The notes below the pieces were generated by a model, which saw only the letters and a program-made list of their open reading frames with translations, made no database searches and had not been told where the DNA came from. From Deltaproteobacteria bacterium (lineage in GTDB: Bacteria > Myxococcota > Kuafuiibacteriia > Kuafuiibacteriales > Kuafuiibacteriaceae), in contig JAVJQW010000041.1 of NCBI GenBank assembly GCA_040218735.1, positions 384,001 to 448,000 on the forward strand: a DNA stretch of 64,000 bases, given 5' to 3'. A program made the position numbers and the translations under genes. Positions 4,910 through 63,327 of this stretch are shown here, piece by piece (position 1 is the first letter of the stretch; each line of letters begins with the position of its first letter).

Positions 4910-4919
4910 CCGCTCCTCC

Positions 4920-28044: not shown

Positions 28045-28466
28045 TCGCCCTCCTGTTCGCGGCGCTTCTTTTCGATCAGCGCCTCGAGCCGATCGAGTGA
28101 CGCAGAGTCCTCACCGGCGACGAGGTCGACGAACGCCGACAGGAGGCCAGCTTCACGCAGGACGCGGGCGCCCCCCGCGGCGTCGAGCATGCGCTGCGCC
28201 TTGAACGTCTCGCGCGTGAGCGCGGCGCGGTATCGATACGCGTGGGAGACCTTCTCTCGAACCACGAGTCCCTTCTTGAAGAGACGCTCCAGCGCGGAAC
28301 CCACGGTATTGACCGAGATTCCGCGGCGACGCCCCAGAGCACGGTGGGTCTCCTGGACGTCCGCCTCGTCGACCCTCCAGAGGTGTTCGAGGACGGCGAG
28401 CTCCAGCTCCCCGAGCTGCGGCAACCTTGATCTGGAGCCGGACACCGCCGCGAGGGTACGCGGCAA
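28041..28466 (-). CDS. BlaI/MecI/CopY-family transcriptional repressor
   Basis: LGELELAVLEHLW; NTVGSALERLFKKGLVVREKVSHAYRY. Confidence 0.9.
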   Translation of the reverse strand: MPRTLAAVSGSRSRLPQLGELELAVLEHLWRVDEADVQETHRALGRRRGISVNTVGSALERLFKKGLVVREKVSHAYRYRAALTRETFKAQRMLDAAGGARVLREAGLLSAFVDLVAGEDSASLDRLEALIEKKRREQEGE

Positions 28467-34093: not shown

Positions 34094-34108
34094 CTCCTCA
34101 CCGTCCGG

Positions 34109-35419: not shown

Positions 35420-35516
35420 GAGCACCTCGATAGCCGCCGGGGTACGACCGGCGGTGGTCTGGGTCAAGGGGATGCGGTCCAGCACATAGGTAGGACGGGG
35501 GCCTTCCGCACGATGT

Positions 35517-36284: not shown

Positions 36285-36293
36285 GAATCGCCC

Positions 36294-36725
36294 CTACTTC
36301 GTCTCCGGCGTGTCCATCGGGTCTGTGACCATGCCGAGCTTCTCGACGCCGGCGCGCTTCACGATCGCCATGATGTCAACGACGTAGCCGTACTCGAGCG
36401 AACGATCCGCGTGCAGGTACAGCTCACGCTCGTCCTGCAGCTTCGCGTTCGCCTTCAGTTTGTCCTCCAGCTCCGCGTACGGGATCGCGTTGTCGTCGTT
36501 GGTCCCGATGAAGATCTGCTTGTCCTTCCGCAACGTCAGCACGAGCTTCTTCTCGGTCCCTTCCATCGCCTGCGCCTTCGTCTTCGGCAGGTCGACGTCC
36601 ACGCCCTGCGTGATCAGCGGCGCCGTGACCATGAAGATGATCAGGAGCACCAGCATCACGTCGACCAGCGGCGTGACGTTGATCTCCGAGACGGCGCGCC
36701 CGCCTCCTCCGCTCGACATGCCCAT
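36294..36725 (-). CDS. tolR: TolR
   Basis: SEINVTPLVDVMLVLLIIFMVTAP; GVDVDLP; ADRSLEYG. Confidence 0.93.
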   Translation of the reverse strand: MGMSSGGGGRAVSEINVTPLVDVMLVLLIIFMVTAPLITQGVDVDLPKTKAQAMEGTEKKLVLTLRKDKQIFIGTNDDNAIPYAELEDKLKANAKLQDERELYLHADRSLEYGYVVDIMAIVKRAGVEKLGMVTDPMDTPETK

Positions 36726-36857
36726 CGCCGCCCGACGCTATCCCATCCGACTTCGACGCACCACGACCCCGATCGATCTGCGAAAATCGCGACTTTTCGG
36801 CCCGGTGGGCGCCGAAGACTGGCGTCGGCGCCCGGATTTCAAGGAAGGTAGAAGGCG

Positions 36858-39614: not shown

Positions 39615-40229
39615 GATTCCGGGCGCGACGGTCGCGAGGTTCGCGCTGCCCATGCGGCCGATGTCCTGGAACGCCTTCATGATGCCCCAGACCGTTCCGA
39701 ACAGGCCGATGAAGGGCGCCGTCGAGCCGACCGTCGCGAGGAAGGACGTCAGGCTCTCCATCGCGGTGATCTCGGAGTTGGCGCTCCGGCGCAGCGCACG
39801 CTCGACGTTCTCGATGCCGCCGCCCAGCGTCTCCTCGTCGCCGCTTCGTTTCTTCAGGCGCGCGAGCTCGATGTACCCGGCACGGAACACCTGCGAGATC
39901 GGCGAGCCCTTGTAGGACTCGGACTGCTGGTACATCTGGTCGAGGCGCTTCGCGTCCCAGAACGCGGTGAGGAATCGCTCCGACTCGCGGCTCGCGCGGC
40001 GGAGGAACCACCACTTGTGGACGATGATCGCCCAGCTCAACACCGAGAACACGATCAGCAGCACGAGCGCCGCGAAGCTGATTGGCCCGGAGTGCGTGAC
40101 CGTCTCCCACAGCGAGATGTCCGTCGCGGAGGGCGGGGCCGCAGGGGTCTGTCCCACGGCTTCGAGCGTGACGATGATGACCGTGTTCGCGTCCGCACCC
40201 GCAGCCATGAGGTGAATGGCCGCTATCAT
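39456..40229 (-). CDS. tolQ: TolQ
   Basis: SVLSWAII; FLATVGSTAPFIGLFGTVWGIM; VAPGISEALIATAAGLAAAIPAV. Confidence 0.93.
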   Translation of the reverse strand: MIAAIHLMAAGADANTVIIVTLEAVGQTPAAPPSATDISLWETVTHSGPISFAALVLLIVFSVLSWAIIVHKWWFLRRASRESERFLTAFWDAKRLDQMYQQSESYKGSPISQVFRAGYIELARLKKRSGDEETLGGGIENVERALRRSANSEITAMESLTSFLATVGSTAPFIGLFGTVWGIMKAFQDIGRMGSANLATVAPGISEALIATAAGLAAAIPAVIAYNFFLSRIRVLTSEMESFSSDFLNIVKRHFFK

Positions 40230-49003: not shown

Positions 49004-51832
49004 TCATTGGCACTCGGGGGGCGTGAGGTTCGCGTACGGCGTCTCGTTGGCGGCGAGGCCGGCCTGAATCTCCTCGTAGCAGGCCTTCACCTCGGCGGCG
49101 CGGGTCCACGTCCCCATCCAGCCGGTCGCGAGCTGACCGGTCTGCGTCACGCCGCTGAAGTCGACGAAGACCTTGAGGTGACAGTCGCGGCAGCTCTCGG
49201 CTTTGCACTCGTCCTGCGGTCCCCACGGGTTGCCGCACGGGGTGCCGCCGTTTTCGCCTTCCATGCACATGACGTAGTTCTTCCAGACGCCCGTGACCTC
49301 GGTCGGTTGGTTCGCGAAGTTCCCGGTGGAGCACGTCGGGTTGTACTCGACCTGCAGCGGGTTGCCGTCCTTGGTGAGCGTGTCGTTGCCGCGCGGGAAC
49401 CAGAACGTCGCCCAGTTCCAGTAGCTGAAGACCTGGTGGGTGCCCGACGAGATGTGGAAACCGACCAGGTACTGCCGCGGGCCGTCCGGGGGATCGTAGG
49501 AGTACAGGTCGTCCGGATCCGCGCTGGCCGGGAGCTCGCCGAGCGTGCGCCAGAAGCCCTTGTACACGCGCGCGTCCGTCTCGAACGCCGGCATCGAGTC
49601 GCGGAGTCCGGCGAAGCAGTACGAGACGCGGGCCGCCTGCGCGCAGGGGTCGAGGTAGCCGTTGCCGCGCAGCGTGTTGTGCGTGCTGCCGTTGTACATC
49701 GTGCGCTTCTGCGTGACGGGCCGGTCGCCGGGTTGCGGGAGGTCGAAGATCTCCTGGTAGGACGCGTACAGCATGTGCTGCGGCACGGAGTGCTCCCAGC
49801 GCGGGTAGCCGTTGACGAGCTCGGTCGCCTCGACGAGCGCGCACCACGCGGCGAGGCGCGACGTGGGGTCGACGTTCGGGTCGTCGCAGGAGGGCTTCAC
49901 GTGCTGAATGCCACCCGCGGCGCCGCCGTCGAGCGGAGGCTTCGGCTTCGCGATCTGCGTGGTGTGCGGCGGGGGCGGGGGCGGGAGGCCGCCGGGCGAG
50001 GTGTCCGTCGGACGGATGTAGATGCCGCCGGCGATCGGGTCCGCGATGGCGACGAAGTCCGGGGTACCGCAGCCGCTCGGTGCGCCACCGTCGAGCTGTT
50101 TGGAGAGGCGTCGCGCGAGGTCCTCGAGGAGCGACGCGTAGCTCAGCGCGGAGTCGTGCGCGCGGCCGGTGGCGACGACGCGACGCGAGCCGCGATCGAG
50201 GCCGGTTGCGGCCGGACGGACGAGGAGGAGATCGACCTTCACACCGGACGCGGGGTCCACGACGTTCGCGGGGACGGGGAGGAAACCTTCGTTGGCGGAT
50301 GCGTTCCACTGAAAAGATGCGATGTAGCTCGCGGACGCCGCGAAGACCGGACAGAGGTGACGGGCGAGGGTGTCGTCGCGAACCTCGCGGACGAGCCCGA
50401 AGGTGGAGGTCGGGTGGGCTTCGGCGTCGGTCGCTTCGAAGAGGCGCGGACACTTGTCACCGCTCGACGGCACCGCGCCGACGCGGAGGCGCACCAGCGT
50501 GGAGCTGCTGCCGGGGAGTCGTTCCATCCGGACGTCGCCGAAGTAGAAGTCCGTGCCTTCCGTGGGCAGGTCGCTGCCGTGCATCGACAGCTCGTCACCT
50601 TCGACGAGCGTGGTCGCGGATCCGATCGGCCGGCCATTGCCGTCGGTGAGTGAAGCGATGGTCGGCGCGGTGCCGAGGCCACACGCGGGCGCGGGGAAGC
50701 TGCTGTAGCCGGGCGCAGGGAAGGGCGCCGCGGGGGGCTTGAGCCCGAAGCGGACGAAGCGCTTCAGGCGCGAGAGGTCGGCGGAGTCGATGTCGCCGTC
50801 GGCGTCGACGTCGGCCGCCGCGACACACGCGACGTCGTCGGTGCCCGCGAGGCGCGCCGAGAGCGCGTGGACGTCGTCGTTGTCGACGCTGCCGTTTTCG
50901 TCGACGTCGCCGCGGATGAACGGCGCGCCGGCGTAGGTCACGCGACCGCCCGTGGCGATGGAGCGGTCGGCGGTGTCGAGGACGATCGCGCCGCTCGCGA
51001 ACGCGGCGGACGGACGCGGCGCGACGACCTGAAGGCGGCTGTCGCTCTGCGTGAGGATCTGCGCGGGCTCCCCAGCGACACGAACGCCGAGGACCTGCGC
51101 GAGGTGCCCGCCGAACACGGTGAGCGTGGTGCCGGTCGGCGACGCGCTGGTTTCGGTGCACTGCGCGTCGGGCGGGAGCGCGGAGTCGATCAGCGTGACG
51201 TTTGCGAAGCCGACCTCACCGGCGGCGGCGAGCGGCGCGCCCTGCGCGGCGGAGACCGTGAGTGTCGCGGACGCGAGCGCGGTGCCGGACGCGTCGTGCG
51301 TGAGCAGGTTGACGCCGTTCGAAGACGCCTCGAGCAGGCTGCCGCTGCGCGACAGGCGAACGGCGACGGGGAGCGAGACCGGGACGGGCGTCGAAGCCAC
51401 GGTGGTGCCGTCGCGCGCTTCGGCGCTGAGCCACACGCTGCCGGCGGCGCGCGAGACGGTGATGCGGAAGCGGGGCGCGTCGGGCGCGCGGACGATCGTC
51501 CGTGCTTCGAGGCCGCCTTCGTTGCCTTCGTCGACGTCGGTGATCAGCGCGGAAACGACGAAGTCGTCGGTGATGTCCTGGCCGACGACGCGGATCGCAT
51601 CGTCGGGGCCGTAGCCGTCGCCGTCGCCGCACAGGCGGAAGCCGTTGCCGCCCGTCGTGCCGGTCGTGCCGGTGGGTATCGATGCGCCGAGCGATTCGCC
51701 GACGTCGTGCGCGTACCAGTCGGCGATCGCGCTGCTCGCGAAACACGGGCTCGCGCCCATCGTCTGTGCCTCGGCGTTAGGGGTGATTGCGCAGGTCGCG
51801 ATGCCGAGTGCGCACAGAACTCGTAGTCTCAT
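49004..51832 (-). CDS. Secreted multidomain protein: beta-sandwich, IPT, dockerin-like EF-hand pair, C-terminal CxxCH (c-type haem) domain
   Basis: GAGGAGG RBS; signal peptide ending AEA; FIRGDVDENGSVD and CVAAADVDADGDID; YLVGFHI...WNWATFW...VWKNY...SCRDCH. Confidence 0.72.
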   Translation of the reverse strand: MRLRVLCALGIATCAITPNAEAQTMGASPCFASSAIADWYAHDVGESLGASIPTGTTGTTGGNGFRLCGDGDGYGPDDAIRVVGQDITDDFVVSALITDVDEGNEGGLEARTIVRAPDAPRFRITVSRAAGSVWLSAEARDGTTVASTPVPVSLPVAVRLSRSGSLLEASSNGVNLLTHDASGTALASATLTVSAAQGAPLAAAGEVGFANVTLIDSALPPDAQCTETSASPTGTTLTVFGGHLAQVLGVRVAGEPAQILTQSDSRLQVVAPRPSAAFASGAIVLDTADRSIATGGRVTYAGAPFIRGDVDENGSVDNDDVHALSARLAGTDDVACVAAADVDADGDIDSADLSRLKRFVRFGLKPPAAPFPAPGYSSFPAPACGLGTAPTIASLTDGNGRPIGSATTLVEGDELSMHGSDLPTEGTDFYFGDVRMERLPGSSSTLVRLRVGAVPSSGDKCPRLFEATDAEAHPTSTFGLVREVRDDTLARHLCPVFAASASYIASFQWNASANEGFLPVPANVVDPASGVKVDLLLVRPAATGLDRGSRRVVATGRAHDSALSYASLLEDLARRLSKQLDGGAPSGCGTPDFVAIADPIAGGIYIRPTDTSPGGLPPPPPPHTTQIAKPKPPLDGGAAGGIQHVKPSCDDPNVDPTSRLAAWCALVEATELVNGYPRWEHSVPQHMLYASYQEIFDLPQPGDRPVTQKRTMYNGSTHNTLRGNGYLDPCAQAARVSYCFAGLRDSMPAFETDARVYKGFWRTLGELPASADPDDLYSYDPPDGPRQYLVGFHISSGTHQVFSYWNWATFWFPRGNDTLTKDGNPLQVEYNPTCSTGNFANQPTEVTGVWKNYVMCMEGENGGTPCGNPWGPQDECKAESCRDCHLKVFVDFSGVTQTGQLATGWMGTWTRAAEVKACYEEIQAGLAANETPYANLTPPECQ

Positions 51833-51868
51833 TTGGTCGTATCCTCCTCGGGTCACCGGACCCGCGAC

Positions 51869-51916
51869 GACATGGGTCGCGACCGCTTCGGATCTGATCT
51901 CGGACTGCAAAAAATC
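51869..51916 (-). promoter_or_regulatory. Putative ECF promoter, motif 2 copy A
   Basis: Minus strand GATTTTTT-N9-GATCAGATCCG-N15-ATGTC. Confidence 0.6.
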
Positions 51917-51934
51917 TGCGACCATCCTCTCGCT

Positions 51935-54580
51935 TTGAAACGCGGCGGAGGGATCGTGCTCTTGTGCGCCGCGCTGGCCTGCACCGAGCGACGCCCTGCG
52001 CCCGAGCCCGAGCTGGTCGACCTCCCGATGCGCGGGTGCGTGCACGTGAGCCGCGTGTGCGAAGTCGGCGAAGCGCCGCTGGTGTTCTACGCCGAGGACG
52101 CCAAGGAAGTACGCGCTGCGCTCGACGGGACGGAGCTGACGACGCGAACCGCGACGCTCGCGACGGGCGTGCGCGTGTCGGTCGACGTCCCCGCGCGGCG
52201 AGGCACGCTGACGTTGTCGATCCTGGGTGACGTGCCGCGGCTCATGCGCGTGTCGGTCGATGCGGTGCCGGCGGACGTCGCGGTGCTCACGGCGCCGACG
52301 GATCGCACTTCGGGTGCGCGGCGCACGCAGGATTCATCGCGCGCGGAGGCGATCGCGAAGTTCGCCGAGGCGCGCCGACTCTACAAGGAGGGGGACGCCG
52401 AGGCGGCGATGGCCGCGCTCACGAAGTCCGCGGAGCTCGCGGACCGCGCGAGCTTGCGATCGCAGGCGGCGCGGAGTCGTCTGCTCGCAGTGTGGATCGC
52501 GGCCCGCAGCCTGCGTGACTTCGAGGCGGCGCGCTCCACGCTCGACCGCGTCCCAAAGCGGTCGCCGTACGACAGTGAGGCGGATGTCCTCCGCGCATTT
52601 CACGTCGCGGTCGTAGCGAGTGAGGTGGGTGATCGTCGCTCGGCGCTCGCAGCGGCCGGTCCGGCGCGGATGCTCGCACGAACGCTCGGTCTGAACGTGC
52701 TGGCGACACGGCTCGAGATGCGGGAGCTGAACACGCTCCACGAGCTGGGGCGTTTCGACGAAGCAGCGACGCGTTGGCGGAGCTTGGTACGACAGGGAAC
52801 GGGAGATGGGTGTCTCGACGTCCTCGCGACCGGCAACCTCGGCTGGTCGCTCATGCGGGCTTCGAAGGGATCCGAGGAAGCACGTGTCTGGCTCGAGGCT
52901 GCGCTCGCCGCTGACGAATCGCGCTGCACGGACCCCCCTCCCACGCGTCGCGCGAATCTCCTCGTCAACTCCGCGCTGCTGGCGCTCGAACGAAAGGAGC
53001 TCGACCGCGCGCAGGCGGCGCTCGACTCGAGCCGCCGGTCGCCGATGCTGCCCGAACATGCGCAGTGGGCGATGTTGATCGACGCCTCCATTGCCCTGGA
53101 GCGCGGAGACGTGAAGCGAGCCCTCGCGGACTTCTGGGCCCTCGCGGAGCGGGCGGACGCGACGCGTTTGACCGAAATCGCGTGGCACGCCTGGGTCGGC
53201 GTAGGGCGCAGCCGGCAAGCACTCGGTGATCTCGACGGCGCCGCAGAGGCGTACGCAGCGGCCGAGGCCCGGACGGCGCGGGAAGCCGTGCTCGTCCCGG
53301 TCGACGGAGGGCGGCAGCATCTCTACGGCGATCGCGAAGAGAGCGCGCGTCGGTGGGTTGCGCTGGAGATCGACCGCGGTCGCCCGAAGGCTGCGTTCGA
53401 TGTGGTGCGTCGCGCTCGACGACGCACGCTCGCCTCGATCGAGCTCGCGCGCCGGATCGCCACGTTGGATGGGGCGTCGCGTACACGGTGGGAGCGGGAC
53501 GTGGCTCGATATCGTCGGACGCGCCAAGCCCTCGAAGACCGGAGCGCAACACTCTGGCTGCTGCCCAAGTCCGAGCGCGCGAAGCAGGAAGCCGAGGTCG
53601 AACGTTCGGTCGCCGAGGCGCGCCGCGCTCTCGACGAAGCGATCGGCAAGTTGGCGCGCACGGATGTGTTCTCCACGCTCGCGAGCGAACGCGGCGATCC
53701 GACCGCCGCACCGTTCCGTTCGCCGGCCGAGGGTGAGGTGATGGTCGCTTGGTATCCGCTCGCCGAGGGTTGGGCGGTGTTCGCGGTCAGCCGCGAGGGC
53801 GTGGTCGTCGAGAGGCTGGTCGGGGAGCCCACGCCGGACGCGATCGTGGGCAAGCTCCGCGGACCCATCGCGGCGGCTCGGCGTGTGACGGTTCTGGCTC
53901 CAGGGGGCGTCGACCGCTTTGCGCTTCACCTCGGTCGACTCGGCGGAGAGCCACTCGCCCGACGCAAGCTCGTCGCGTACGCCCTCGACCTCCCACCGCG
54001 CGAGGAACGTTCGAATGACCGAAAGAGCGCACTCGTCGTCAGCGATCCACGCGGCGACCTACGGGCGGCTCGGGACGAGGGCACCCGCGTCGCGACGAAC
54101 CTCTCGTCCCGCGGCTGGTCCGTATCTCGAGCCCAGTCCGACGAAGCGACACGGCGCCGCCTCCTCGTCGGGCTCACGCGGGTGGAGCTCCTCCACTACG
54201 CGGGTCACGGCACGTTCGGGGGCCACGAGGGTTGGGAGAGCAGCCTGCGTTTGGCGGACGGTCGTGTGACGGTGGGCGACATCCTCACGTCGACCGCCGC
54301 GCCCGCGACGGTGCTCCTCCTCGGGTGTCGTACGGCGGAGAGTAGCGACGTCGGGGCGAGCGCGGGGCTGGGGATCGCCCAGGCCTTCGTCCTCGCCGGG
54401 GCCCGCGCGGTCGTCGCGGCGACGCGCGAGATCGACGACGAGGCCGCCGCCGAAGTGTCGGCCCGAATTTCTTCCGCCCTCGATGACGGATCCGACCTCC
54501 TCACCACCTATCAACGGTCTGTACACGGAACCGACGACGACGTGCCCGAACGGGACGCCATCGTGGTCCTGACCCCCTGA
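51935..54580 (+). CDS. TPR-CHAT domain protease, putative lipoprotein (start 51935 TTG or 51956 GTG)
   Basis: LLCAALAC lipobox; TPR-like helices; ALVVSDPRGDLRAARDEG; LLHYAGHG and LLGCRT catalytic dyad; GIAQAFVLAGARAVVA. Confidence 0.88.
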   Translation: MKRGGGIVLLCAALACTERRPAPEPELVDLPMRGCVHVSRVCEVGEAPLVFYAEDAKEVRAALDGTELTTRTATLATGVRVSVDVPARRGTLTLSILGDVPRLMRVSVDAVPADVAVLTAPTDRTSGARRTQDSSRAEAIAKFAEARRLYKEGDAEAAMAALTKSAELADRASLRSQAARSRLLAVWIAARSLRDFEAARSTLDRVPKRSPYDSEADVLRAFHVAVVASEVGDRRSALAAAGPARMLARTLGLNVLATRLEMRELNTLHELGRFDEAATRWRSLVRQGTGDGCLDVLATGNLGWSLMRASKGSEEARVWLEAALAADESRCTDPPPTRRANLLVNSALLALERKELDRAQAALDSSRRSPMLPEHAQWAMLIDASIALERGDVKRALADFWALAERADATRLTEIAWHAWVGVGRSRQALGDLDGAAEAYAAAEARTAREAVLVPVDGGRQHLYGDREESARRWVALEIDRGRPKAAFDVVRRARRRTLASIELARRIATLDGASRTRWERDVARYRRTRQALEDRSATLWLLPKSERAKQEAEVERSVAEARRALDEAIGKLARTDVFSTLASERGDPTAAPFRSPAEGEVMVAWYPLAEGWAVFAVSREGVVVERLVGEPTPDAIVGKLRGPIAAARRVTVLAPGGVDRFALHLGRLGGEPLARRKLVAYALDLPPREERSNDRKSALVVSDPRGDLRAARDEGTRVATNLSSRGWSVSRAQSDEATRRRLLVGLTRVELLHYAGHGTFGGHEGWESSLRLADGRVTVGDILTSTAAPATVLLLGCRTAESSDVGASAGLGIAQAFVLAGARAVVAATREIDDEAAAEVSARISSALDDGSDLLTTYQRSVHGTDDDVPERDAIVVLTP

Positions 54581-54593
54581 CGCGAGAACGAAC

Positions 54594-56501
54594 ATGAAAC
54601 GCTTGAACAACGCCCTTTGGATTGCCCCTCTCCTCGTCGCCGCCTGTGGCGCGCCCGAGGAGCCCGTCGAGACCGCGGAGGCGGGCATCACGCCCGCACA
54701 GCAGAGTCACTGCGACGCGTTGCGCGCCGCCGGCGCGACCTCGCTACCCTGGTATTGCGGTGGCTTGCAGAGCACCTTGCCGCCGGAGCTCGACCGCGCG
54801 TGCCCCGACAACCAGTGGGTCGGCTACCGCCTGACCTCCGCGCCTTGCCCGGTCGTCACGGCGCCGCCGGCCCTCGGGACCTGGAACAAGACCGAGCCCT
54901 TCACGGGCTCCATCCCGGGCCTCGAGCGCTGGTGTGTGTACCGCTGGGAGCCTGCGGTGGTCGGCACGCCGCCCGACACCTCGGTGCTCCCCGATACGCC
55001 GGACCTCCGTCTGGAGCGGGACTGTGAGGTCGTGAGCGCCCACGCGCGCCTTCCGAACGGTGCGTGGCAGCCCCTGTCGACCGCTTATCTCGAGCAGATC
55101 GATGTCCCGGAGATCGCCGGCCTGCCGTTCCAGCAGACGACGCGCGTCGCGATCGTCGACAGCTCGCTGGAGCGCGTCGGGGCGGTGAGCGAAGGCCTGT
55201 CGCGTCACGGCGAGGCGATGGGCTCGGTCGTCCACAACCTGACATGCCTCGGACCGAACGGTGCGCCGTGCGGCGCGGAGCTATCGAATCACCTCGCGCT
55301 CCCGCGCATCGACACCGAGACCTACGGAGAGCGCGGCGGGCACTACGGCACGCAGTCGGAGCTCGGCGTCGCGATGTTCCAGGCGATCTTCTCCTGGCGC
55401 TTCGGACCGACTTGGACCCCCGGCTCTCGTTTCATCATGAACCTGAGCGTCGGCTGGAACGAGGCCTACGGCGGTGCACCGTCGAACCCGAGCCTGCCCG
55501 CGAAGCTGGTCTACCAGGTTGCGCAGTACGCCTCCTGCAACGGCGCGCTGATGATTGCGGCGTCCGGCAATCGCTCGACCGACCTCACTCCGGGGCCGAT
55601 CTTCCCGGCGGGTTGGGAGCGCGCGACGCCCTTCTGCTCCGACGCGCCGCCCAACGCCTACGACCCGCTGGTGCACGCCGTGGGCGGAGTCGATGGGCGT
55701 GACTCCACACTCGCGCTCTCGCGGATCGCCTCGCAGCCGCGCCTCGTCGCACCGGCCGCGCAGGTGAACGTGGAGCAGCCCGTGCTCAACAACGTCCCGA
55801 CCGTGATCGCGAGCGGGACGTCCTTCGCCGCGGCGGGGGTTTCGGCGACCGCCGCGCTCGTGTGGAGCCTGCGCCCCAACCTCCAGCCGTACCAGGTGAT
55901 GCAGGTCGTCTATCAATCCGCGATCCCCGTGGGCGGCGCGTCGGACTTCGGGTTGAACAACCAGGCCTTCGCGCGGCGTCGTGTCTCGGTGTGCCGCGCG
56001 GTGACGCTCGCCTGCCTGGGCCTCGCCTGCCCGCCGCTCCCCGCGTGTGAGAACCGTGCAGCGGGCGTCGACGCCACGGCAGACTTCGCGACGGCGATTT
56101 CCATCACCTACCCCGGGTTGATGGGACCGCAGAACGCGGTGCCGGGGCCGAGCGCAACGAATCCGAGCGACCTCGATCCCTTCAAGGAGCCGTGGGTCGT
56201 CCCGCAGCCCGACGAGGAGCCGTGTCCGCTTTGTGGGATCACCGCTGCTACTTTCGAAGGTCAGATCGATCAGGACATCGCGCAGTCCGGCGCGACCATC
56301 ACCAACAGCACGGTCATCGTCACGACGTTCCAGGGCGACGAATTCGTCATCGCGGTCGACATCCCCGACCCCACCCAGCCCTTCGAGATCGAGCTGGCTC
56401 AGCTGCAGGATCAGGACCTGAAGACCGGGAAGTTCGAATTGACGACGGACGAGAAAGGTGAGGAAACCGTCCGCGTCAGTGAGCTCTTCATCAAACCGTA
56501 G
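54594..56501 (+). CDS. S8 subtilase-like serine peptidase lipoprotein
   Basis: LLVAAC lipobox; VAIVDS, RHGEAM, MNLSVG, AASGN and SGTSFAAAGVS motifs. Confidence 0.85.
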   Translation: MKRLNNALWIAPLLVAACGAPEEPVETAEAGITPAQQSHCDALRAAGATSLPWYCGGLQSTLPPELDRACPDNQWVGYRLTSAPCPVVTAPPALGTWNKTEPFTGSIPGLERWCVYRWEPAVVGTPPDTSVLPDTPDLRLERDCEVVSAHARLPNGAWQPLSTAYLEQIDVPEIAGLPFQQTTRVAIVDSSLERVGAVSEGLSRHGEAMGSVVHNLTCLGPNGAPCGAELSNHLALPRIDTETYGERGGHYGTQSELGVAMFQAIFSWRFGPTWTPGSRFIMNLSVGWNEAYGGAPSNPSLPAKLVYQVAQYASCNGALMIAASGNRSTDLTPGPIFPAGWERATPFCSDAPPNAYDPLVHAVGGVDGRDSTLALSRIASQPRLVAPAAQVNVEQPVLNNVPTVIASGTSFAAAGVSATAALVWSLRPNLQPYQVMQVVYQSAIPVGGASDFGLNNQAFARRRVSVCRAVTLACLGLACPPLPACENRAAGVDATADFATAISITYPGLMGPQNAVPGPSATNPSDLDPFKEPWVVPQPDEEPCPLCGITAATFEGQIDQDIAQSGATITNSTVIVTTFQGDEFVIAVDIPDPTQPFEIELAQLQDQDLKTGKFELTTDEKGEETVRVSELFIKP

Positions 56502-57144
56502 CGCCCCCGACGGGGCCTCGGATCTCGAGCTCGTCCAACAGGCCCTCGGTCGCGACGCCGCCGCCTGTCGCCGCCTGGTGCGGCGGCTGACGCCCGTCAT
56601 CCAGCGCCGGGTGAACGGCGCCCTGATCCGGCACCACCGCATCGACCGGCAGGAGACCCTCGACCTCACGCAGGACGTCTTCCGCCTCCTCTTCGACAAC
56701 GACGGGCGCGTCCTACGCACCTGGGATCCGGAGCGCGGGCTGTCGCTGGAGAACTTCGTCGGCCTCGTCACCCGGCGCGAGGTGAACGCCATCCTCTCCT
56801 CCGGGCGACGCAGCGCGTGGGCCGAAAAACCCACCGCCCCGGACGACCTGGAGCCCCAGGCCGCCGCGCCGGAGGCCGAGGTCCGGACGCTGTCGAAGGA
56901 TCTCCTCCGCGAGGTCCTGAAGCGCCTCGAGCAGCGCCTGAGCACCAAGGGCCTCGCGCTGTTCTACGCGCTGTTCGTGCAGCACCTGGACGTCGAGACC
57001 ATCTGCGCCGAGCACGACATGAAGCGCGACGCCGTCTACACCTGGCGCGCGCGGCTCAAGAAGACCGTCGCGACGATCTCCGAAGAAATCGCGTCAGATG
57101 ACGGCCTGTCACCACCAACGTCACGAGCGGGAGCATCCGGATGA
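56479..57144 (+). CDS. ECF RNA polymerase sigma factor
   Basis: DLELVQQAL; DLTQDVF; LRTWDPERGLSLENFV; region 4 ICAEHDMKRDAVYTWRARLKK. Confidence 0.88.
   Translation: MSSSSNRSAPDGASDLELVQQALGRDAAACRRLVRRLTPVIQRRVNGALIRHHRIDRQETLDLTQDVFRLLFDNDGRVLRTWDPERGLSLENFVGLVTRREVNAILSSGRRSAWAEKPTAPDDLEPQAAAPEAEVRTLSKDLLREVLKRLEQRLSTKGLALFYALFVQHLDVETICAEHDMKRDAVYTWRARLKKTVATISEEIASDDGLSPPTSRAGASG
57094..57122 (+). promoter_or_regulatory. Putative ECF promoter, motif 2 copy B (inside sigma 3' end, before anti-sigma)
   Basis: TCAGAT-N18-ACGTC, same spacing as the other two copies. Confidence 0.45.
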
Positions 57145-57857
57145 ATCGCGACGAAGATCTGCTCGAAGCCCTCGGCGAAGCCGCAAAGGACCGCGACGAG
57201 GAGGATGACCGCTGGTGGGACGCGGTCGCGGCGAAGGACGCCTCGGCGCTGCCCTCCGAGGAGGCCGTCGAAGCGCTGAGGCCCCTCGACGACGCGGAGA
57301 TGGACGGCATCGCCGACATGCTCCTCGCGGAGGAGAAGCCCGCCGTCGAAGCGGATGAGGGCGGCGCGACGGTCGTCTCGATCTTCTCCGCCCGCCGCTG
57401 GGCCGCCCCCGCCGGCGCGCTCCTCGCGGTCGCCGCCGCGGCGCTGCTGTTCCTGAGCACGCCGAACGACGCGATGCTCCCGCGCTACGCGCTCGACGTT
57501 CGCTCCGGCGAGAAGGTCGTCCGCGGCGACGACCACACCCAGACCGAGATCACCGCGTACTCCGACGGCGCGACGTTCGACTTCGTCCTCGTCCCCGACG
57601 AGCGGGTCACCGGAGACGTCGCGCTCGCCGCGGTGGTGATCGGCGACGGCGGGGAGAAGGTTTGGGACGCCCCCTTCACCCGCCTGGACGGCGGCACGCT
57701 CCGCGTCCGCGGCGTCGTCGGCGAGCAGCTCGACCTCGCTCCGGGCGACTGGCGCGTCGTGTTCTTCGTCGGCCCGAAGGACCGCCTCCCGACGACGCCC
57801 ACGCACGAAACGCCGTCCGGCGTGCAGCGCTTCGAAGCCCAGATCCGCGTCCGCTGA
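57141..57857 (+). CDS. Putative membrane anti-sigma factor
   Basis: ATGA overlap with the ECF gene; acidic cytoplasmic N-terminus; TM AGALLAVAAAALLFL; C-terminal Ig-like domain. Confidence 0.75.
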   Translation: MNRDEDLLEALGEAAKDRDEEDDRWWDAVAAKDASALPSEEAVEALRPLDDAEMDGIADMLLAEEKPAVEADEGGATVVSIFSARRWAAPAGALLAVAAAALLFLSTPNDAMLPRYALDVRSGEKVVRGDDHTQTEITAYSDGATFDFVLVPDERVTGDVALAAVVIGDGGEKVWDAPFTRLDGGTLRVRGVVGEQLDLAPGDWRVVFFVGPKDRLPTTPTHETPSGVQRFEAQIRVR

Positions 57858-57905
57858 TTTTTTTTCCCTCCGCGGATCAGATCCGCACCCCCCACCGCCA
57901 ATGAC
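57856..57905 (+). promoter_or_regulatory. Putative ECF promoter, motif 2 copy C
   Basis: GATTTTTTTT-N9-GATCAGATCCG-N15-ATGAC; 11-mer identical to copy A. Confidence 0.6.
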
Positions 57906-57949
57906 CGACCGAAGCGCTCGCACCGAGCGCTCGGAAGGAAGAAAACAAA

Positions 57950-60100
57950 ATGTCACGTACCCAGCTCCGGCACGGCCGGTTCATCGCATCGATCTGCGCC
58001 GGTCTGGCGGCGCTCACCTTCACGGGTTCGGCGTTCGCCGAGCCGTGGGCCGGCGACGTCACCGGCGAGACGCCCTGGACCACCGCGACCGGCGACTTCG
58101 ACAACGACAACCAGCGCGACCTGGTCTTCGGTTTCCCGAAGCGCTCGGGCAACGGCCTGGTCGGCATCTGGATCAACGACGGAGACCCGCGCCACAGCGC
58201 GGTCGAAAACGGCAGCAACAACGGCGCCGCCTACTTCAACCTCGTCCAGAACAACTTCCTCACGATCTTCCCCGCGTCGCCCGTCATGCAGGGCTCGCCG
58301 GTCTACAACCAGGCCCAGCCGCTCTTCGGCGCGAGCGTCGTGACCGGTGACTTCGACAACGACGGCAAGGACGACATCGCGTTCGGCGCACCCGGCGCGA
58401 CGATCAACGGCCGCTCCAACGCCGGCGCGGTCGTCGTCATCTACGGCAAGGACCTCGGCAACCCGAACGCGAACATCCCGCCGACCCCCGGCGCTGCGGT
58501 CACGTTCACGCAGGACTCACCCGGCGTCGGCTCCTCCGCGGAGACCAACGACTACTTCGGTGAAGTGCTCGCGGTCGGTGACTTCGACTGCAACGGCGTC
58601 GACGACCTCGCGATCGGTGTTCCGCGCGAGGACATCGGCTACAGCGCGCCGGACGCCGGCTACGTGCACGTCCTCTACGGTCAGACGAACAGCGGCCTCA
58701 CCGGCGTCGGCAGCTCCACGCTGTGGCAGGGCGGCGGCCCGCTCTCGGACACCTACGAGGCCAACGACCACTTCGGCGCCGCGCTCGCGGGCGGGGCCTT
58801 CGCGCCGTCTTCGTACTTGGGCCAGCGCTGGTGTGACAGCCTCGCGATCGGCGTGCCCGGCGAAGACTTCACGTACAACTACCAGACCCGCGTCGACGCC
58901 GGCCGTGTGCACCTCATCATCGCGCCGAGCTACGCGCAGGGCGGTTACTTCACGGGCTTCAAGCCGATCACCGAAGGCTTCGAGTTCCTCCTCGACCAGT
59001 CCACGAACGGCGTCTACTCCTCCCCCGAGAACAACGACACGTTCGGCTCGGCGCTCGGTCGTGTGACCGGATCGCGGGCTGCTCGCGGCAGCCCCACCCC
59101 ATTCATCGACGCGCTGTGGATCGCCGCCGCCGGCGAGTCCTGCAACAACTGTGTGGACGGCGTCGTGCACCGCCTCGACTGGTACCTCGGCAGCTCCTGG
59201 ACCGGCTCCAGCGTGCGCCCCGACATCCTGGAGACCGAGACCGGCGTCGTCGTGGAGAAGGGCGACCAGTTCGGCCGCTGGTTGCAGTACATCCCGGAAG
59301 GCATCGACCCGCAGACCGCCGAGATGTTCGTCGTCTCGCCCGGCACCAACAAGTACACGTCCTCCGAGAGCGCCGCGTGGCCCGCGGGGCGCGCCAACGC
59401 GAACCGCTACATGGCGTACGACGGCTTCGTGCAGGCGGCCGACGACCTCGGCTTCGTGCTGATCATCCCCGAGTGGGAGGACTACAACTTCGGCAACGAC
59501 TTCCAGCCCAACTTCAACGCGGGCGGCTACCGTGCGCTCCTCGGTCGCGACATCCGCGCCGACTGGTGGATCGACCGCATCGTGGACCGCTACGCAAACG
59601 TCGGTCTCGGCGACGGACGGATGCACCTCTTCGGTCACTCGGCTGGCGGACAGTTCGCGATTCGCTACGCGCTGCAGCGCCCCGAGCGGATGCTGAACGT
59701 CATCGTCGAGTCGTCGGGCAGCATGCCGCGTCCCACGATCGACGAGAACCCGAACGACGGCATCGAGCCGACGCCGAGCCCTTGGCGCGGTGGCTTCGGC
59801 AACATCTGGCTCCCGGCGGCGAACGGTTGGCCGGCGCTCGTGTTCTTCCCCAACGAGGCGGGCGCGGCGTGGGCCGCGGCGAACCGCCCGATCAGCATCG
59901 TGGCCGGGTCGCTCGAGGGCGCTTCGCACACGGACGTGGTGATGGACTGGATGGACGACGTCGCGACGACGTGGGGCCCGCACCAGATGACGTACTGCGA
60001 AGTGCAGGGCGTGGACCACGACTCCAAGAGCGCGCACCGCTCCGCGCTCAAGACCGTGTGGCCGAGCCTGTCGTTCCCGGGCGCGCCCGCGTGCAACTGA
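57950..60100 (+). CDS. Secreted FG-GAP (integrin-like propeller) protein fused to an alpha/beta-hydrolase
   Basis: Signal peptide; FGASVVTGDFDNDGKDDIAFGAPG and FGEVLAVGDFDCNGVDDLAIGVP repeats; GHSAGG nucleophile; GVDH. Confidence 0.85.
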   Translation: MSRTQLRHGRFIASICAGLAALTFTGSAFAEPWAGDVTGETPWTTATGDFDNDNQRDLVFGFPKRSGNGLVGIWINDGDPRHSAVENGSNNGAAYFNLVQNNFLTIFPASPVMQGSPVYNQAQPLFGASVVTGDFDNDGKDDIAFGAPGATINGRSNAGAVVVIYGKDLGNPNANIPPTPGAAVTFTQDSPGVGSSAETNDYFGEVLAVGDFDCNGVDDLAIGVPREDIGYSAPDAGYVHVLYGQTNSGLTGVGSSTLWQGGGPLSDTYEANDHFGAALAGGAFAPSSYLGQRWCDSLAIGVPGEDFTYNYQTRVDAGRVHLIIAPSYAQGGYFTGFKPITEGFEFLLDQSTNGVYSSPENNDTFGSALGRVTGSRAARGSPTPFIDALWIAAAGESCNNCVDGVVHRLDWYLGSSWTGSSVRPDILETETGVVVEKGDQFGRWLQYIPEGIDPQTAEMFVVSPGTNKYTSSESAAWPAGRANANRYMAYDGFVQAADDLGFVLIIPEWEDYNFGNDFQPNFNAGGYRALLGRDIRADWWIDRIVDRYANVGLGDGRMHLFGHSAGGQFAIRYALQRPERMLNVIVESSGSMPRPTIDENPNDGIEPTPSPWRGGFGNIWLPAANGWPALVFFPNEAGAAWAAANRPISIVAGSLEGASHTDVVMDWMDDVATTWGPHQMTYCEVQGVDHDSKSAHRSALKTVWPSLSFPGAPACN

Positions 60101-60109: not shown

Positions 60110-61462
60110 TCAGATGTTCATCTCGACCTGTAGGTAGCCGATCGTCGGGTTCGGCGTGGGCGCCCCTCGGGCGGCGTTCACGGCGAACCCGCGGCGCCAC
60201 AGGTGTGCGAAGCCTCCTTCCAATCTCACGTTCCCCGGCAGGACGTCGTACTGCACGCGCACTTCGAATTGCTCGCCGAGCGTCGCCCCCGACTGACCCG
60301 TGGGATCGCTGTACCCCGACCCGAACCAAGCGTCGCGCGCGGCGGCGAGTGTGAACGAACGGGCGGTGATGAGCGTGCGGACCCCGTCGAAGGGGCTCGC
60401 GTCGAGTTGGATCCCCGGCGTGAACAGGTTCGTACGGTTGAACGCGAGGTAGATCATCGTCGGCCCGTACTCGGGGCGCGGGACACCGTAGAGGTGGTTG
60501 AAGCCGTGGCTCACGTCGTCGTCGGGATCCTCGTCGCCGCTGGCGTACTCGAACGTGAGGGACAGGCTGGGCTGGGCCCACACGTCGAAGGTGTAGCCGG
60601 TGGACGCGTGGAGGAAGCCGGCAAGGTGGTTCAACTGCTCGACCTCGCCGACCTGAAGGAGCGCCTCCAGCTCGAAGTGGACGTCACCCACCGCGGGGTT
60701 CTTCACCACGCGGACGCCGGGGTTGAGCAGGTCGGCCCGGCCGTTGGCGCGGCGGTCGTGGCGACCGAAGACATACGGCTCGAACGCGACGTCGCCGAAG
60801 ACCCGCCGCACGTAGACGCCCCAGAAGACGTTGTCGAAGGACTCCGTGTCGAGCTCGAAAGCGTTGTCCGCGATCGCGTCGCGGTCGGTTGGTCTGATTC
60901 GCACCGGGAGCGTCGCGAACGCGTCGACGGTCGTGTCGCTCGCTTCGTAGTGCAGGTGTCCGCCGGTGAACGCGTTGATCGTGTTGCGGTAGCGGTTGCG
61001 CGCGATGAAGCGACGGCTACCGAGGTCGAGCGTGAAGCGACCGAGGAGGAGCGACAGCTTTCGCTCTTCGTTTTCGGCGTCGAAAGCGACGTACGCCTGG
61101 AGGATGTCGAGCGGGTTGGCGTACGCGAAGTCGACGGGAGTGTTGTCGTCCGAGAGGTACGCGCGCATGTCGACGACCTCCCCGCCGACGCGCCACGCCG
61201 AGCCGCGCGCCTCGGCGAAGATACCGGTACGGGTCGAGAGCACCTGGTCGCCGCCCGTCAGGCCGGCCCGGAACTGTTCGTCGATCGCCTCGAAGCGGGT
61301 CTGGTTGTGCAGCTCGACCGTGAGCCACTCGGGGAGGCGGTCCGAGAGCCGCCAGGGCTCGGCCGACGACGACCTCGGAGAGGAAGTCGTCATGGCCACG
61401 AATGCGATGGCCGCGAGCTGCAGGGCGGTGGCGCGGGGCCATCGGTTCTCGGCGATCGACAT
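60110..61462 (-). CDS. Alginate-export (AlgE-like) family outer-membrane porin
   Basis: TRFEAIDEQFR; ILQAYV; GRFTLDLGSRRFIARNRYRNTINAFTG; YASGDEDP. Confidence 0.82.
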   Translation of the reverse strand: MSIAENRWPRATALQLAAIAFVAMTTSSPRSSSAEPWRLSDRLPEWLTVELHNQTRFEAIDEQFRAGLTGGDQVLSTRTGIFAEARGSAWRVGGEVVDMRAYLSDDNTPVDFAYANPLDILQAYVAFDAENEERKLSLLLGRFTLDLGSRRFIARNRYRNTINAFTGGHLHYEASDTTVDAFATLPVRIRPTDRDAIADNAFELDTESFDNVFWGVYVRRVFGDVAFEPYVFGRHDRRANGRADLLNPGVRVVKNPAVGDVHFELEALLQVGEVEQLNHLAGFLHASTGYTFDVWAQPSLSLTFEYASGDEDPDDDVSHGFNHLYGVPRPEYGPTMIYLAFNRTNLFTPGIQLDASPFDGVRTLITARSFTLAAARDAWFGSGYSDPTGQSGATLGEQFEVRVQYDVLPGNVRLEGGFAHLWRRGFAVNAARGAPTPNPTIGYLQVEMNI

Positions 61463-61551
61463 GGGCGTGGCACGTAACATCGATTCGATGCGGCGTCGCG
61501 GTGTTCCGCGTTGATGCGCCGACGCACAAAACTCACCGATCCGCGCGGTGC

Positions 61552-63327
61552 ATGTTGCTGAGGCCTCAGAACTCACCGAAGGTGTTCGTGGGGGGACTCT
61601 TGGCGGGAGGATCTGCGAGCGGCGCCAAGCCCGGACATGGCCTGGAACGTCGGCTCCTCGTGGGATGGGTCGCCGGGTCGGTCGTCGTGGGTCTCGCCGC
61701 GCTCGCCGGAGCGTTCTTCCCCCTCTACGACCTGCTGTTGGAGCAGCGCGAGGCCCAACTCCTGGAGCAGTGCCGTGCGACCGCACGCGGCGTCCAGCAG
61801 TTCGAGCGACGCATCGAGGCGATCGCGGCGCAGGTGTCGAGTCGAACCCGGGCGCGCGGTGCCCTCGAGGCGCTCAACACAGAACGAAGCACGCTTGCGG
61901 AACACGAGGCGATCGTCCGTCCGATCCTCGAGGACGCGCTCCGACGTTCCCGCGGTGCCATCGCGTGGTTGGTTCGTCACGACGCCGACGGGCGTCGTGT
62001 CATCGCCATGGGGTCCGAGGCCTCGCCCATCGCGCTGGTCCCGGACGCACCCGAGCTCCTCCTTCGGGGCGTCGTCGAGAACGCCGGGGAACGCTACGTC
62101 GTCGTCGAGTCCGCGATCCTCGACCCGACCGGGCGTCGCGTCGGGACCGACCAGGTCGGGTTCGATCTGGCGGCGCTCCGTGCCTTGTTGGACGACGCGA
62201 CGTTGCTCTCGTCGGACGGACAGATCGCCCTCGGGGCTCCGCTCTCTCGCGCGTGGCGGGACTGGGCGTTGGCGCCGACCTCCGAGGTGGTGGCGGACGA
62301 CGAGGTCGGTGAGCGGCTCCTGACCCGCGCGGCGGTCGACGATACCCAGTGGTGGGTCGTCCGCTCGACGCCGTACGCGTCCTCGATCACCGGCCAGCCG
62401 CTTCGGCGCCTGTTCTGGATCATGGCGGTGTTGATCCTCGTCGTGGTCTTGGCGACGGCGCTGTCGCCGGTTCTGTTGGCGCCCGTGTCACGACGACTCG
62501 TGGCGGACGCGCGTCGGATCGAGGAGGAGTCCGCGTCCCGGTTGGAGGCCGAGGAGGCGCTTCGAAAGCACCTCGACAACCTCGAAGAGGTGGTCGCGGA
62601 GCGCACCGCTTCCTTGGAGCGTTCGAACGCGGACCTCGAGCAGTACGCCTACCTCGTCTCGCACGATCTCAAGGGCCCGATTCGCACGATCTCCGCGTTT
62701 GCGGAGGTCCTCGAGGGCAACGAGGCGATCGCCGAGGACCCTGAGGCGCTTCACCAGATCCACTTCGTCCGCCAGGCCGCGAAGCGTTCGTCGGACATGG
62801 TCGATGCGCTCCTGGAGCACGCGCGTGTTTCGCGGGTGTCGTTGGCTCCGACGACGGTCTCGCTCGATGAGGTCACCCAGGAGATTTGTAGGGATCTCGG
62901 TACGCGAATTCGGGACACGGGTGCGAACATCGAGGTGGGTCAGCTCCCGACGCTCGAGACGGACCCGCAGCTCGTTCGGTGCATCCTCCAAAACCTCATC
63001 GAAAACGCGTTGAAATATCGGCGGCCCTCCACCCCTCCGCACGTCTGGGTGCGATCGACGGACGTCGATGGGCGCATCGTGGTCGAGGTCGAGGACAACG
63101 GTGTGGGCTTCGACCCGAAACACACCGAGCGGGTGTTCATGAAGTTCTCGCGCCTCCACAACGACGACGCGATCGAGGGCGTGGGGATCGGGCTCGCCTT
63201 GGTTCAACGTTCCGCCGAGCGACTCGGAGCCCGGGTGTCGGCGAGCTCACGACCCGGGGTCGGTAGCTGTTTCCGCGTCGAGTTCGGCGTCGATCTCGAA
63301 GAAGACCTCAGCCCGAGAACGCGATGA
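61552..63327 (+). CDS. Membrane sensor histidine kinase (start uncertain)
   Basis: Two TMs; LEQYAYLVSHDLKGPIR; QNLIENALKY; EDNGVGF; GVGIGLA. Confidence 0.88.
   Translation: MLLRPQNSPKVFVGGLLAGGSASGAKPGHGLERRLLVGWVAGSVVVGLAALAGAFFPLYDLLLEQREAQLLEQCRATARGVQQFERRIEAIAAQVSSRTRARGALEALNTERSTLAEHEAIVRPILEDALRRSRGAIAWLVRHDADGRRVIAMGSEASPIALVPDAPELLLRGVVENAGERYVVVESAILDPTGRRVGTDQVGFDLAALRALLDDATLLSSDGQIALGAPLSRAWRDWALAPTSEVVADDEVGERLLTRAAVDDTQWWVVRSTPYASSITGQPLRRLFWIMAVLILVVVLATALSPVLLAPVSRRLVADARRIEEESASRLEAEEALRKHLDNLEEVVAERTASLERSNADLEQYAYLVSHDLKGPIRTISAFAEVLEGNEAIAEDPEALHQIHFVRQAAKRSSDMVDALLEHARVSRVSLAPTTVSLDEVTQEICRDLGTRIRDTGANIEVGQLPTLETDPQLVRCILQNLIENALKYRRPSTPPHVWVRSTDVDGRIVVEVEDNGVGFDPKHTERVFMKFSRLHNDDAIEGVGIGLALVQRSAERLGARVSASSRPGVGSCFRVEFGVDLEEDLSPRTR

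Follow-up and report, generated by a model that had tools for sequence, protein, structure and literature searches.

What would two proteases, one caspase-like and one of the subtilisin type, both with the export signals of lipoproteins, be doing beside a sigma factor? The question is raised by four packed genes on the same strand, at 51.9-57.9 kb of a 64,000-nucleotide stretch (hereafter the window, meaning its whole length) from the genome of a Deltaproteobacteria bacterium of the Kuafuiibacteriaceae (Myxococcota; assembly GCA_040218735.1, contig JAVJQW010000041.1). Open reading frame (ORF) calls give, in order, a protein with tetratricopeptide repeats and a CHAT domain (TPR-CHAT), a serine peptidase of family S8, a sigma factor, and a 238-amino-acid (aa) protein resembling an anti-sigma factor; the start of the sigma gene overlaps the end of the S8 gene by 44 nt, and the start of the anti-sigma gene overlaps the sigma stop by 4 nt (ATGA). 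We think that the locus is probably a split, two-protease form of the sigma switch by regulated proteolysis that is represented by DdvS/DdvA of Myxococcus xanthus. The first-pass annotation, made from the letters of the window, had already read here four packed or overlapping genes for a lipobox-bearing TPR-CHAT protease with an intact His/Cys dyad, a lipobox-bearing S8 peptidase with a D/H/S triad, a sigma factor of the extracytoplasmic function (ECF) type and an anti-sigma-like protein with a single transmembrane helix, and all four identifications hold, with the qualification that the sigma factor is a divergent member of the ECF type, recognisable as such through a profile of its paralogs.

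As many spurious frames are open in the DNA of this region (about 70% G+C), genes were chosen by third-position G+C together with family matches, and, as the PDB yielded nothing useful when searched with the CHAT, sigma and anti-sigma proteins as single sequences, profiles were used. The sigma factor taken as a single protein matches nothing in Pfam at E<=0.01 and no sigma family even at E<=10, and its match to TIGR02937 (6.1e-05, 22.7 bits) is under the cut-off of 42.9. A profile of 12 paralogs, on the other hand, matches the solved ECF sigma factor ShbA (9isn_F) at 4.4e-12 over nearly its whole length (profile positions 16-204), and paralogs reach the Pfam cut-offs for Sigma70_ECF or Sigma70_r2. 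It is thus by the profile and the paralogs, the single protein being below threshold, that the sigma factor belongs to the ECF (group IV) sigma-70 factors. Another sigma/anti-sigma pair lies elsewhere in the window, at 2700-5609 on the minus strand: a canonical ECF sigma factor (Sigma70_ECF, Sigma70_r4_2) and a zf-HC2 anti-sigma, followed by a 490-aa protein without Pfam match, with no CHAT or S8 gene adjoining.

The 238-aa protein has no match in Pfam or NCBIfam. We consider it an anti-sigma factor because its family aligns over the whole length with the zf-HC2 anti-sigmas of a second subtype of the module found in the same genome (subtype B, described below); the hhalign alignment (probability 99.0, E 3e-18) has 210 columns, which span the N-domain, the membrane helix and the ectodomain. 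The protein is predicted to consist of a cytoplasmic helical N-domain (residues 1-64), one transmembrane helix (residues 87-108) and a periplasmic beta-sandwich (residues 116-237) resembling an immunoglobulin (Ig) domain. In the AlphaFold2 (AF2) model, made with 101 sequences and with a mean confidence (predicted local distance difference test, pLDDT) of 82, helices at 3-30, 40-45 and 51-64 are followed by a disordered stretch, the membrane helix (93-106 in the model) and the sandwich, in which blocks from about residue 141 reach pLDDT 94-97; the sandwich matches Ig- and filamin-like domains with Z<=9.0, i.e. at a generic level. The HxxxCxxC zinc motif is absent, the ligand columns of the subtype-B proteins falling on non-ligand residues or gaps, and no zf-HC2 match is found in the window protein or in any of the 101 family members, none of which has a meaningful Pfam match. 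The family is a large one: at 50% identity it forms 3171 clusters with E<=0.001, and 464 clusters reach E<=1e-30.

For the TPR-CHAT protein, a TTG start yields MKRGGGIVLLCAALAC, a lipoprotein signal with the lipobox AALAC, and this start is the likely one because an ortholog from the same genus keeps both the TTG and the signal peptide, and not the frame upstream. After the signal come a small beta domain at the N-terminus, in which a pair of Cys is conserved, a TPR superhelix, and the CHAT domain, whose dyad is formed by His758 (in HYAGHG) and Cys798 (in LLGC). Both residues are invariant in 13/13 aligned paralogs, which argues that catalysis is under selection. The paralogs share the Cys pair just after the lipobox or signal, which fits a protein predicted to be periplasmic, and each of the CHAT and S8 paralogs begins with a lipobox or a signal/anchor. 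When the AF2 model of the window protein (pLDDT 85, predicted template modelling score 0.84) was compared with known structures by Foldseek, the top match was DdvA (8rw5; 3.6e-13, 16% identity), nearly tied with Csx29 of type III-E CRISPR systems (8eey_B; 4.8e-13) and followed by separases; similarly, the best CHAT-domain match of the profile in the PDB is DdvA (8rot_B; 2.7e-07), with Csx29 chains near 1e-3. The third-position G+C of several CHAT paralogs (C64:172299-174827, C50:30291-32990 and C17:38644-41355) is 0.62-0.73, much below the value of about 0.9 in typical genes, for which relaxed codon usage, recent acquisition and fast evolution are possible causes; it is 0.81 in the window copy.

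The S8 protein begins with MKRLNNALWIAPLLVAAC, whose lipobox is LLVAAC (Cys18), and it matches PF00082 with 55.6 bits, well above the cut-off of 21.8. Its D189, H205 and S410 stand in the Asp/His/Ser order of the family and, together with the oxyanion N326, are invariant in 9/9 paralogs; a C-terminal PQPxxxCPxC motif is also conserved. The Asp and His are 16 residues apart, a spacing that is longer in subtilisin.

The assembly (11.6 Mb) was searched with tblastn, followed by gene calls and Pfam, with a radius of 10 kb for neighbours here and below. CHAT paralogs were found at 16 places and sigma paralogs at 14; a sigma gene is near 12 of the former, and a CHAT gene near 13 of the latter. Gene order varies among the twelve modules, and ten have a serine protease, which is S8 in nine and, in C17a, a 350-aa Trypsin_2 lipoprotein in place of S8 (C17:220431-221483); C42 and C56 have neither. 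Seven modules (C58, C64, C54a, C50, C67, C17a and C42) are of a window-like subtype A, with a weakly scoring sigma factor and a partner of 220-265 aa without Pfam match. Subtype B (C54b, C17b, C59 and C61) has a CHAT gene, a zf-HC2 anti-sigma, an S8 protein of about 770 aa and then a Sigma70_ECF sigma factor. The twelfth locus, C56, combines CHAT and a sigma paralog with a partner of 242 aa, which can be aligned to the anti-sigmas of subtype B but has no zf-HC2 match. In C42 (503000-517000) a single CHAT gene lies between two sigma/anti-sigma pairs, with an FG-GAP protein adjoining. Anti-sigma and TPR-CHAT are encoded by separate genes in the window, as they are in every paralog of this genome that was examined.

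Related loci were then sought by scanning a single genome of each species with an alignment of 6 sigma sequences, and the paralog profiles were searched in the 28 loci obtained, 20 strong (E<=3e-28) and 8 weak (L045-L052). The titles of the strong loci name Myxococcota, Polyangiaceae, Haliangium, Sandaracinus and Nannocystaceae, plus four metagenome-assembled genomes (MAGs) labelled Acidobacteriota or Thermoanaerobaculia; those of the weak loci name Stellaceae, Alphaproteobacteria, Acidobacteria and Myxococcales. Such a search for co-occurrence had been suggested with the first-pass annotation, and its outcome is favourable among the strong loci: CHAT is near 16/20 (three of the misses, L033, L034 and L040, being contig ends), S8 is near 10/20, and the anti-sigma is present in 18/20 (once in fused form), which, with the 4-nt overlap in the window, designates it as the adjacent cognate partner of the sigma factor. 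The profiles found no CHAT, anti-sigma or S8 gene near any of the eight weak loci. Seen from the anti-sigma side, the family (E<=1e-8) occurs in 21/201 sampled genomes of the phylum, including 11/19 other genomes of the window's own family, and the present genome has the most matches (13) of the 201; in 40 relatives, 27/40 matches to the anti-sigma have a CHAT match nearby, several of the others lying on short contigs. The recurrence of the module in this and other genomes is more than chance, and the view that the four genes form a functionally linked unit is supported.

The strongest argument that these separate proteins work together comes from Haliangium. In one MAG of this genus (L029), a 1145-aa protein consists of a whole anti-sigma (profile positions 1-235, E 1.6e-34) joined in frame to a whole TPR-CHAT protein (profile positions 24-878), without a lipoprotein signal at the joint, and an S8 gene comes next. 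A second fused protein, of 1174 aa, is found in another Haliangium; its N-terminus matches the anti-sigma profile with a probability of 99.3 and is 44% identical to the anti-sigma part of the first fusion, while its C-terminal part is 35% identical to the window CHAT protein, closer than any in-genome paralog.

A predicted complex between TPR-CHAT and the anti-sigma ectodomain had also been suggested as a check: the prediction for CHAT residues 17-881 with ectodomain residues 109-238 has a median score of 0.59 (runs 0.40, 0.59 and 0.66) against 0.01 for the best of three controls, but it ranks as 'weak support' only. The three runs share at least 95% of their contacts, with a partner pLDDT of at least 79. 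The mark used is reached by 116/157 solved complexes and 2/215 mismatched pairs, scores of 0.60 or less at the mark being those of 18/157 solved complexes and of both passing mismatches, and these reference counts hold only roughly, our own alignments having been used. With the fusions as a prior, the prediction modestly raises the odds of an interaction. Co-variation was evaluated by correlating matrices of normalised BLAST scores (Mantel) across 12 four-gene modules with clean ORFs (five from this genome and L025, L027, L037, L038, L041, L043 and L044), omitting L028 (CHAT in two ORFs), L029 (fused), L031 (ambiguous ORFs) and every subtype-B module. The correlation is positive for all pairs and highest for anti-sigma/S8 (r 0.67), followed by anti-sigma/CHAT (0.44), sigma/anti-sigma (0.39), CHAT/S8 (0.37), sigma/CHAT (0.27) and sigma/S8 (0.22).

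How might such a switch operate? By homology, the zinc-less, single-pass anti-sigma would keep the sigma factor at the inner membrane through its cytoplasmic N-domain, and its Ig-like periplasmic domain may be the docking site and/or the substrate of the TPR-CHAT lipoprotein, as the natural fusions and the complex prediction suggest. Proteolysis would be triggered by a signal from outside the cytoplasm, most likely a protein that the TPR superhelix reads; CHAT and S8 would together carry out the two-protease (site-1) step that removes the ectodomain, one perhaps priming the other, and a site-2 protease of the RseP type would then free the sigma factor. The genome does contain M50 site-2 proteases (two full-length matches, 220 and 201.5 bits). 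As there are about a dozen modules in the genome, each probably reads its own signal and drives its own small regulon. The first-pass annotation had proposed a cascade in which S8 and/or CHAT act on the anti-sigma to switch on secreted effectors: the module itself, the lipoboxes and the fusions, which tie CHAT to the anti-sigma, speak for the first half of this proposal, but its output in secreted effectors is unsupported, for reasons given with the flanking genes below.

The closest precedent is DdvS/DdvA, which the first-pass annotation did not cite. Regulated intramembrane proteolysis in general is described in the DdvA paper (PMC11506125). The single-pass anti-sigma DdvA combines a zinc-bound three-helix bundle in the cytoplasm with a fused TPR-CHAT part in the periplasm (PMC11506125, PMC6061681); when the latter is removed, DdvA is degraded in an RseP-dependent manner, and the system controls a defence island (PMC11506125) combining CRISPR with CBASS (cyclic-oligonucleotide-based antiphage signalling system). 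In both cases an ECF sigma factor is held by a single-pass anti-sigma (in the window, as predicted from the genes), and a periplasmic TPR-CHAT part with a His/Cys dyad is the proposed site-1 protease ahead of RseP; the window CHAT protein is likewise exported, its fold matches 8rw5, and the two Haliangium relatives even have the fused layout of DdvA. The differences are nevertheless considerable. In the window, anti-sigma and TPR-CHAT are encoded separately, the latter as a lipoprotein; the anti-sigma lacks a CHCC zinc site, although its model has three N-terminal helices, and its ectodomain is Ig-like, whereas DdvA has a helical scaffold there; the split modules have an additional S8 (or S1) lipoprotein; and there is no CBASS/CRISPR island in the window, with about 12 copies of the module per genome. 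Sequence similarity is remote, with no single-sequence match and the 16% identity already mentioned for the fold alignment.

The suspicion, voiced with the first-pass annotation, that genome-context surveys had noted this arrangement was justified: it is already in print, from context, in another phylum and without experiments. The supplement of Casas-Pastor et al. 2021 (PMC7826278) describes, around the actinobacterial sigma factors of group ECF54, a carboxypeptidase-regulatory-like (beta-sandwich) protein at position +1, a subtilase and a CHAT/TPR protein, the entry recognising no anti-sigma, and a review places ECF54 under 'proteolysis' from this context (PMC8999054). Compared by the printed description, the likeness extends to all of these partners, but the window's +1 protein is homologous to zf-HC2 anti-sigmas, and its family (101 members) has no meaningful Pfam domain match. 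A word-based search with the sigma profile cannot address the link with ECF54; it listed 56 proteins, the named ones belonging to Myxococcota or Nannocystaceae and none to Actinobacteria. We found no experimental study of the split module in the literature.

Other precedents are more distant. In the SigmaE system (RseA/RseB/DegS/RseP), a periplasmic serine protease takes off the periplasmic domain of a single-pass anti-sigma, which is then cut by an M50 site-2 protease. The window shares with it the single-pass layout of the anti-sigma, and the genome the M50 genes, but S8 and caspase-like proteases stand in for the S1C/PDZ enzyme, the sensors are lipoproteins, and the ectodomain has no homology to RseA. 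The comparison put forward in the first-pass annotation was with type III-E CRISPR systems, in which the TPR-CHAT protease Csx29 cuts Csx30, a binding partner of CASP-sigma, and so frees an ECF-like sigma factor (bioRxiv 10.1101/2023.06.23.546230); it retains its value in the near-tied fold match, yet this precedent is more remote than DdvS/DdvA, as Craspase is cytoplasmic, RNA-guided and bound to Cas7-11, whereas the window CHAT protein is exported. Assignment to the Csx29 family itself was rejected: the match to NF041237 (E 0.017) scores 13.9 bits where the cut-off is 300, export sets the protein apart, and the window has no cas genes. Haliangium ochraceum, finally, has a SAVED-CHAT to PCaspase cascade triggered by cyclic oligoadenylate from a type III-B system (bioRxiv 10.1101/2023.06.23.546230), which, as described there, is again a CHAT protease of Myxococcota in a two-protease cascade touching a sigma factor, but cytoplasmic, triggered by CRISPR, and with a caspase rather than a subtilase as second protease. 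The window itself contains another protease-gated transcription switch, at 27088-28466 on the minus strand, with a BlaI-type repressor (Penicillinase_R) and a BlaR1/M48-M56 sensor-protease.

The data can be read in other ways, the most serious of which inverts the roles of the two enzymes. The serine protease (S8 or trypsin-like) would be the true site-1 enzyme and TPR-CHAT a sensor or guard on the ectodomain, as DegS and RseB are for RseA, the catalytic site of CHAT acting elsewhere, for example on the signal protein or on the pro-form of S8. That Trypsin_2 replaces S8 in C17a suggests that the role is a generic one for serine proteases; of all pairs of matrices, anti-sigma and S8 give the highest correlation; and S8 follows even the fused anti-sigma/TPR-CHAT gene of Haliangium. 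We nevertheless find this rather unlikely, for the His/Cys dyad is invariant in every CHAT paralog aligned, and this reading gives the principal role to the enzyme most often missing: S8 from 10/20 related loci, and any serine protease from 2/12 in-genome modules, CHAT being nearly always there. DdvA, moreover, works without any mention of S8, the word 'subtilisin' occurring 0 times in the text of PMC11506125. A second possibility is that the proteases are mere cargo, i.e. that an autoregulated sigma/anti-sigma pair drives the production of two envelope proteases acting on prey, matrix or envelope proteins. Regulators and targets are indeed indistinguishable by neighbourhood alone (PMC7826278), the genes are packed as one likely operon, and large secreted proteins lie beside several modules. 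However, the anti-sigma is fused in frame to TPR-CHAT in the two Haliangium proteins; the complex prediction, weak as its support is, stands well apart from its controls; both enzymes are predicted to be lipid-anchored and not freely secreted; the anti-sigma ectodomain family is specific to the modules and common to both subtypes; and DdvA offers a precedent for the regulatory role. We therefore hold the cargo hypothesis to be improbable.

One may also imagine that the module serves in defence or conflict, with proteases that kill in the manner of abortive infection and a sigma factor that is a side branch, a role suggested for certain CHAT systems linked to CRISPR, since DdvS/DdvA controls a defence island (PMC11506125), CHAT proteases act in type III CRISPR cascades (bioRxiv 10.1101/2023.06.23.546230), and one of the paralog modules adjoins an RHS/SpvB/TcdB-type protein. 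This seems to us very unlikely: in a Pfam scan, none of the window's 44 called genes matched a cas, CBASS or other defence family, which, with the lipoboxes on both proteases, agrees with the first-pass view of a CRISPR-independent, extracytoplasmic unit; the enzymes are predicted to face the periplasm; and about a dozen paralogs fit a sensor repertoire better than a suicide device.

The hypothesis that we prefer, that of a split DdvS/DdvA-type switch with two proteases, has its own difficulties, which should be acknowledged. Binding, cleavage and transcription are steps that we infer for the split modules, and even for DdvA self-cleavage is a proposal of its paper, the account given there identifying no trigger (PMC11506125). 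The window anti-sigma has no Cys/His ligands and also lacks an N-domain segment held by most family members, so that its binding to the sigma factor is deduced from the homology of the family. S8 may be accessory, as only half of the related loci carry it; one locus (C14) has a sigma and anti-sigma paralog pair without proteases, and another (L030) has the sigma gene alone despite full flanks. The complex prediction lends only weak support, and the co-variation shows only that the modules evolve as units, because the same correlations would arise if modules were duplicated as a whole. Lastly, no shared promoter motif was detected at 27 module heads, pairs of a 5-mer and a 4-mer spaced 14-18 nt apart occurring in at most 8 sequences, against 7-9 in shuffled ones.

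The coordinates of the module and of its immediate neighbours are collected in the following table.

Table. Positions in the window of the four-gene module, its principal residues and domains, and the adjacent features
Feature	Position	Strand	Details
Secreted TIG/dockerin neighbour	49004..51832	-	Pfam Dockerin_1 4.4e-08
14-nt block AATCTGCGACCATC	51913..51926	+	kept in same-genus ortholog L002
TPR-CHAT lipoprotein	51935..54580	+	881 aa from TTG 51935; frame open 51833-54580; Pfam CHAT 6.1e-19
CHAT lipobox Cys16	51980..51982	+	
CHAT His758	54206..54208	+	
CHAT Cys798	54326..54328	+	
S8 (subtilisin-type) lipoprotein	54594..56501	+	635 aa; Pfam Peptidase_S8 6.5e-15
S8 D189	55158..55160	+	
S8 H205	55206..55208	+	
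S8 N326 (oxyanion)	55569..55571	+	
S8 S410	55821..55823	+	
Divergent ECF-type sigma factor	56458..57144	+	228 aa from GTG 56458; alternative GTG 56479
Zinc-less single-pass anti-sigma (predicted)	57141..57857	+	238 aa; family alignment to zf-HC2 anti-sigmas
Anti-sigma N-domain	57141..57332	+	
Anti-sigma transmembrane helix	57399..57464	+	
Anti-sigma Ig-like beta-sandwich	57486..57851	+	
Secreted FG-GAP + alpha/beta-hydrolase neighbour	57950..60100	+	Pfam FG-GAP 1.6e-24; Abhydrolase_1 1.1e-05

Both flanking proteins named by the first-pass annotation, one with a dockerin and a CxxCH motif and the other an FG-GAP hydrolase, are present. The dockerin protein has a signal peptide from M72 and a C-terminal CRDCH motif, and its gene, divergent from the CHAT gene, is syntenic in a genome of the same genus. 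The idea that the two are effectors switched on by the module did not fare so well: neither has a homolog in any of the 28 related loci (0/28; BLASTP against all ORFs, E<1e-5), and no promoter motif is shared among modules. Both genes thus appear to lie outside the conserved unit and are not supported as its output. In this genome, FG-GAP proteins do flank four modules, namely C58, C42, C17b (there with an astacin domain) and C54b. Immediately downstream of the last, which is of subtype B, a lipoprotein of 1515 aa is encoded (C54:169000-173544) that has RHS repeats and matches FG-GAP, SpvB and TcdB_toxin_midN. Scans for sigma-70 promoters and terminators gave nothing above shuffled sequences. 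The 14-nt block, which ends 9 nt upstream of the start codon of CHAT, is kept in the same-genus ortholog while the surrounding intergenic DNA is not, and may be part of a promoter or leader; the window has no second copy, other matches needing 3 mismatches and being no more frequent than expected by chance.

Beyond the module, the FG-GAP gene is followed by an Alginate_exp-type outer-membrane porin (60110-61786, minus strand), missed by the G+C-based gene caller, and by a histidine kinase (61402-63327, plus strand); a Tol-Pal-like cluster (OmpA-family, TolB, TonB_2, ExbD/TolR and MotA/TolQ proteins), interrupted by a hybrid histidine kinase on the opposite strand, occupies 33398-40229. Five DNA runs, which come from three studies and are labelled as aquaculture, sponge and biofloc metagenomes, have contigs in which at least half of the sampled words of 51800-58000 recur, a possible source having been excluded; this is a lead on habitat only.

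What is new in this window is the expansion to about a dozen modules, the existence of two subtypes linked by a single ectodomain family, the exchange of S8 for S1, the Haliangium fusions and the link with the ECF54 context. A large family without Pfam model, that of zinc-less anti-sigmas with an Ig-like ectodomain, is thereby given a name, and the '+1 beta-sandwich protein' of ECF54-type neighbourhoods may be their missing anti-sigma. More generally, the system could show how envelope proteases turn genes on. The claim at stake is that a periplasmic caspase-like protease makes the first cut in the release of a sigma factor. It is hard to test in DdvA, because the enzyme and its presumed substrate are one chain and because the signal is not identified in the account of PMC11506125; in the split form, the protease, the second protease and the substrate are separate and can be mixed, mutated and titrated, which makes the claim directly testable. 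One may go further and suppose, as a speculation that we would ourselves bet against, that the dozen or so modules are a diversifying repertoire of periplasmic two-protease receptors, in which each TPR-CHAT/S8 pair has a protein of its own to recognise, foreign or self (from prey, phage or kin), and cuts its matched Ig-like anti-sigma to set off a private transcriptional response. If this were true, protease and substrate could, thanks to the split, evolve independently and be swapped one without the other, and the repertoire would be a bacterial envelope counterpart of the expanded families of innate-immune receptors.

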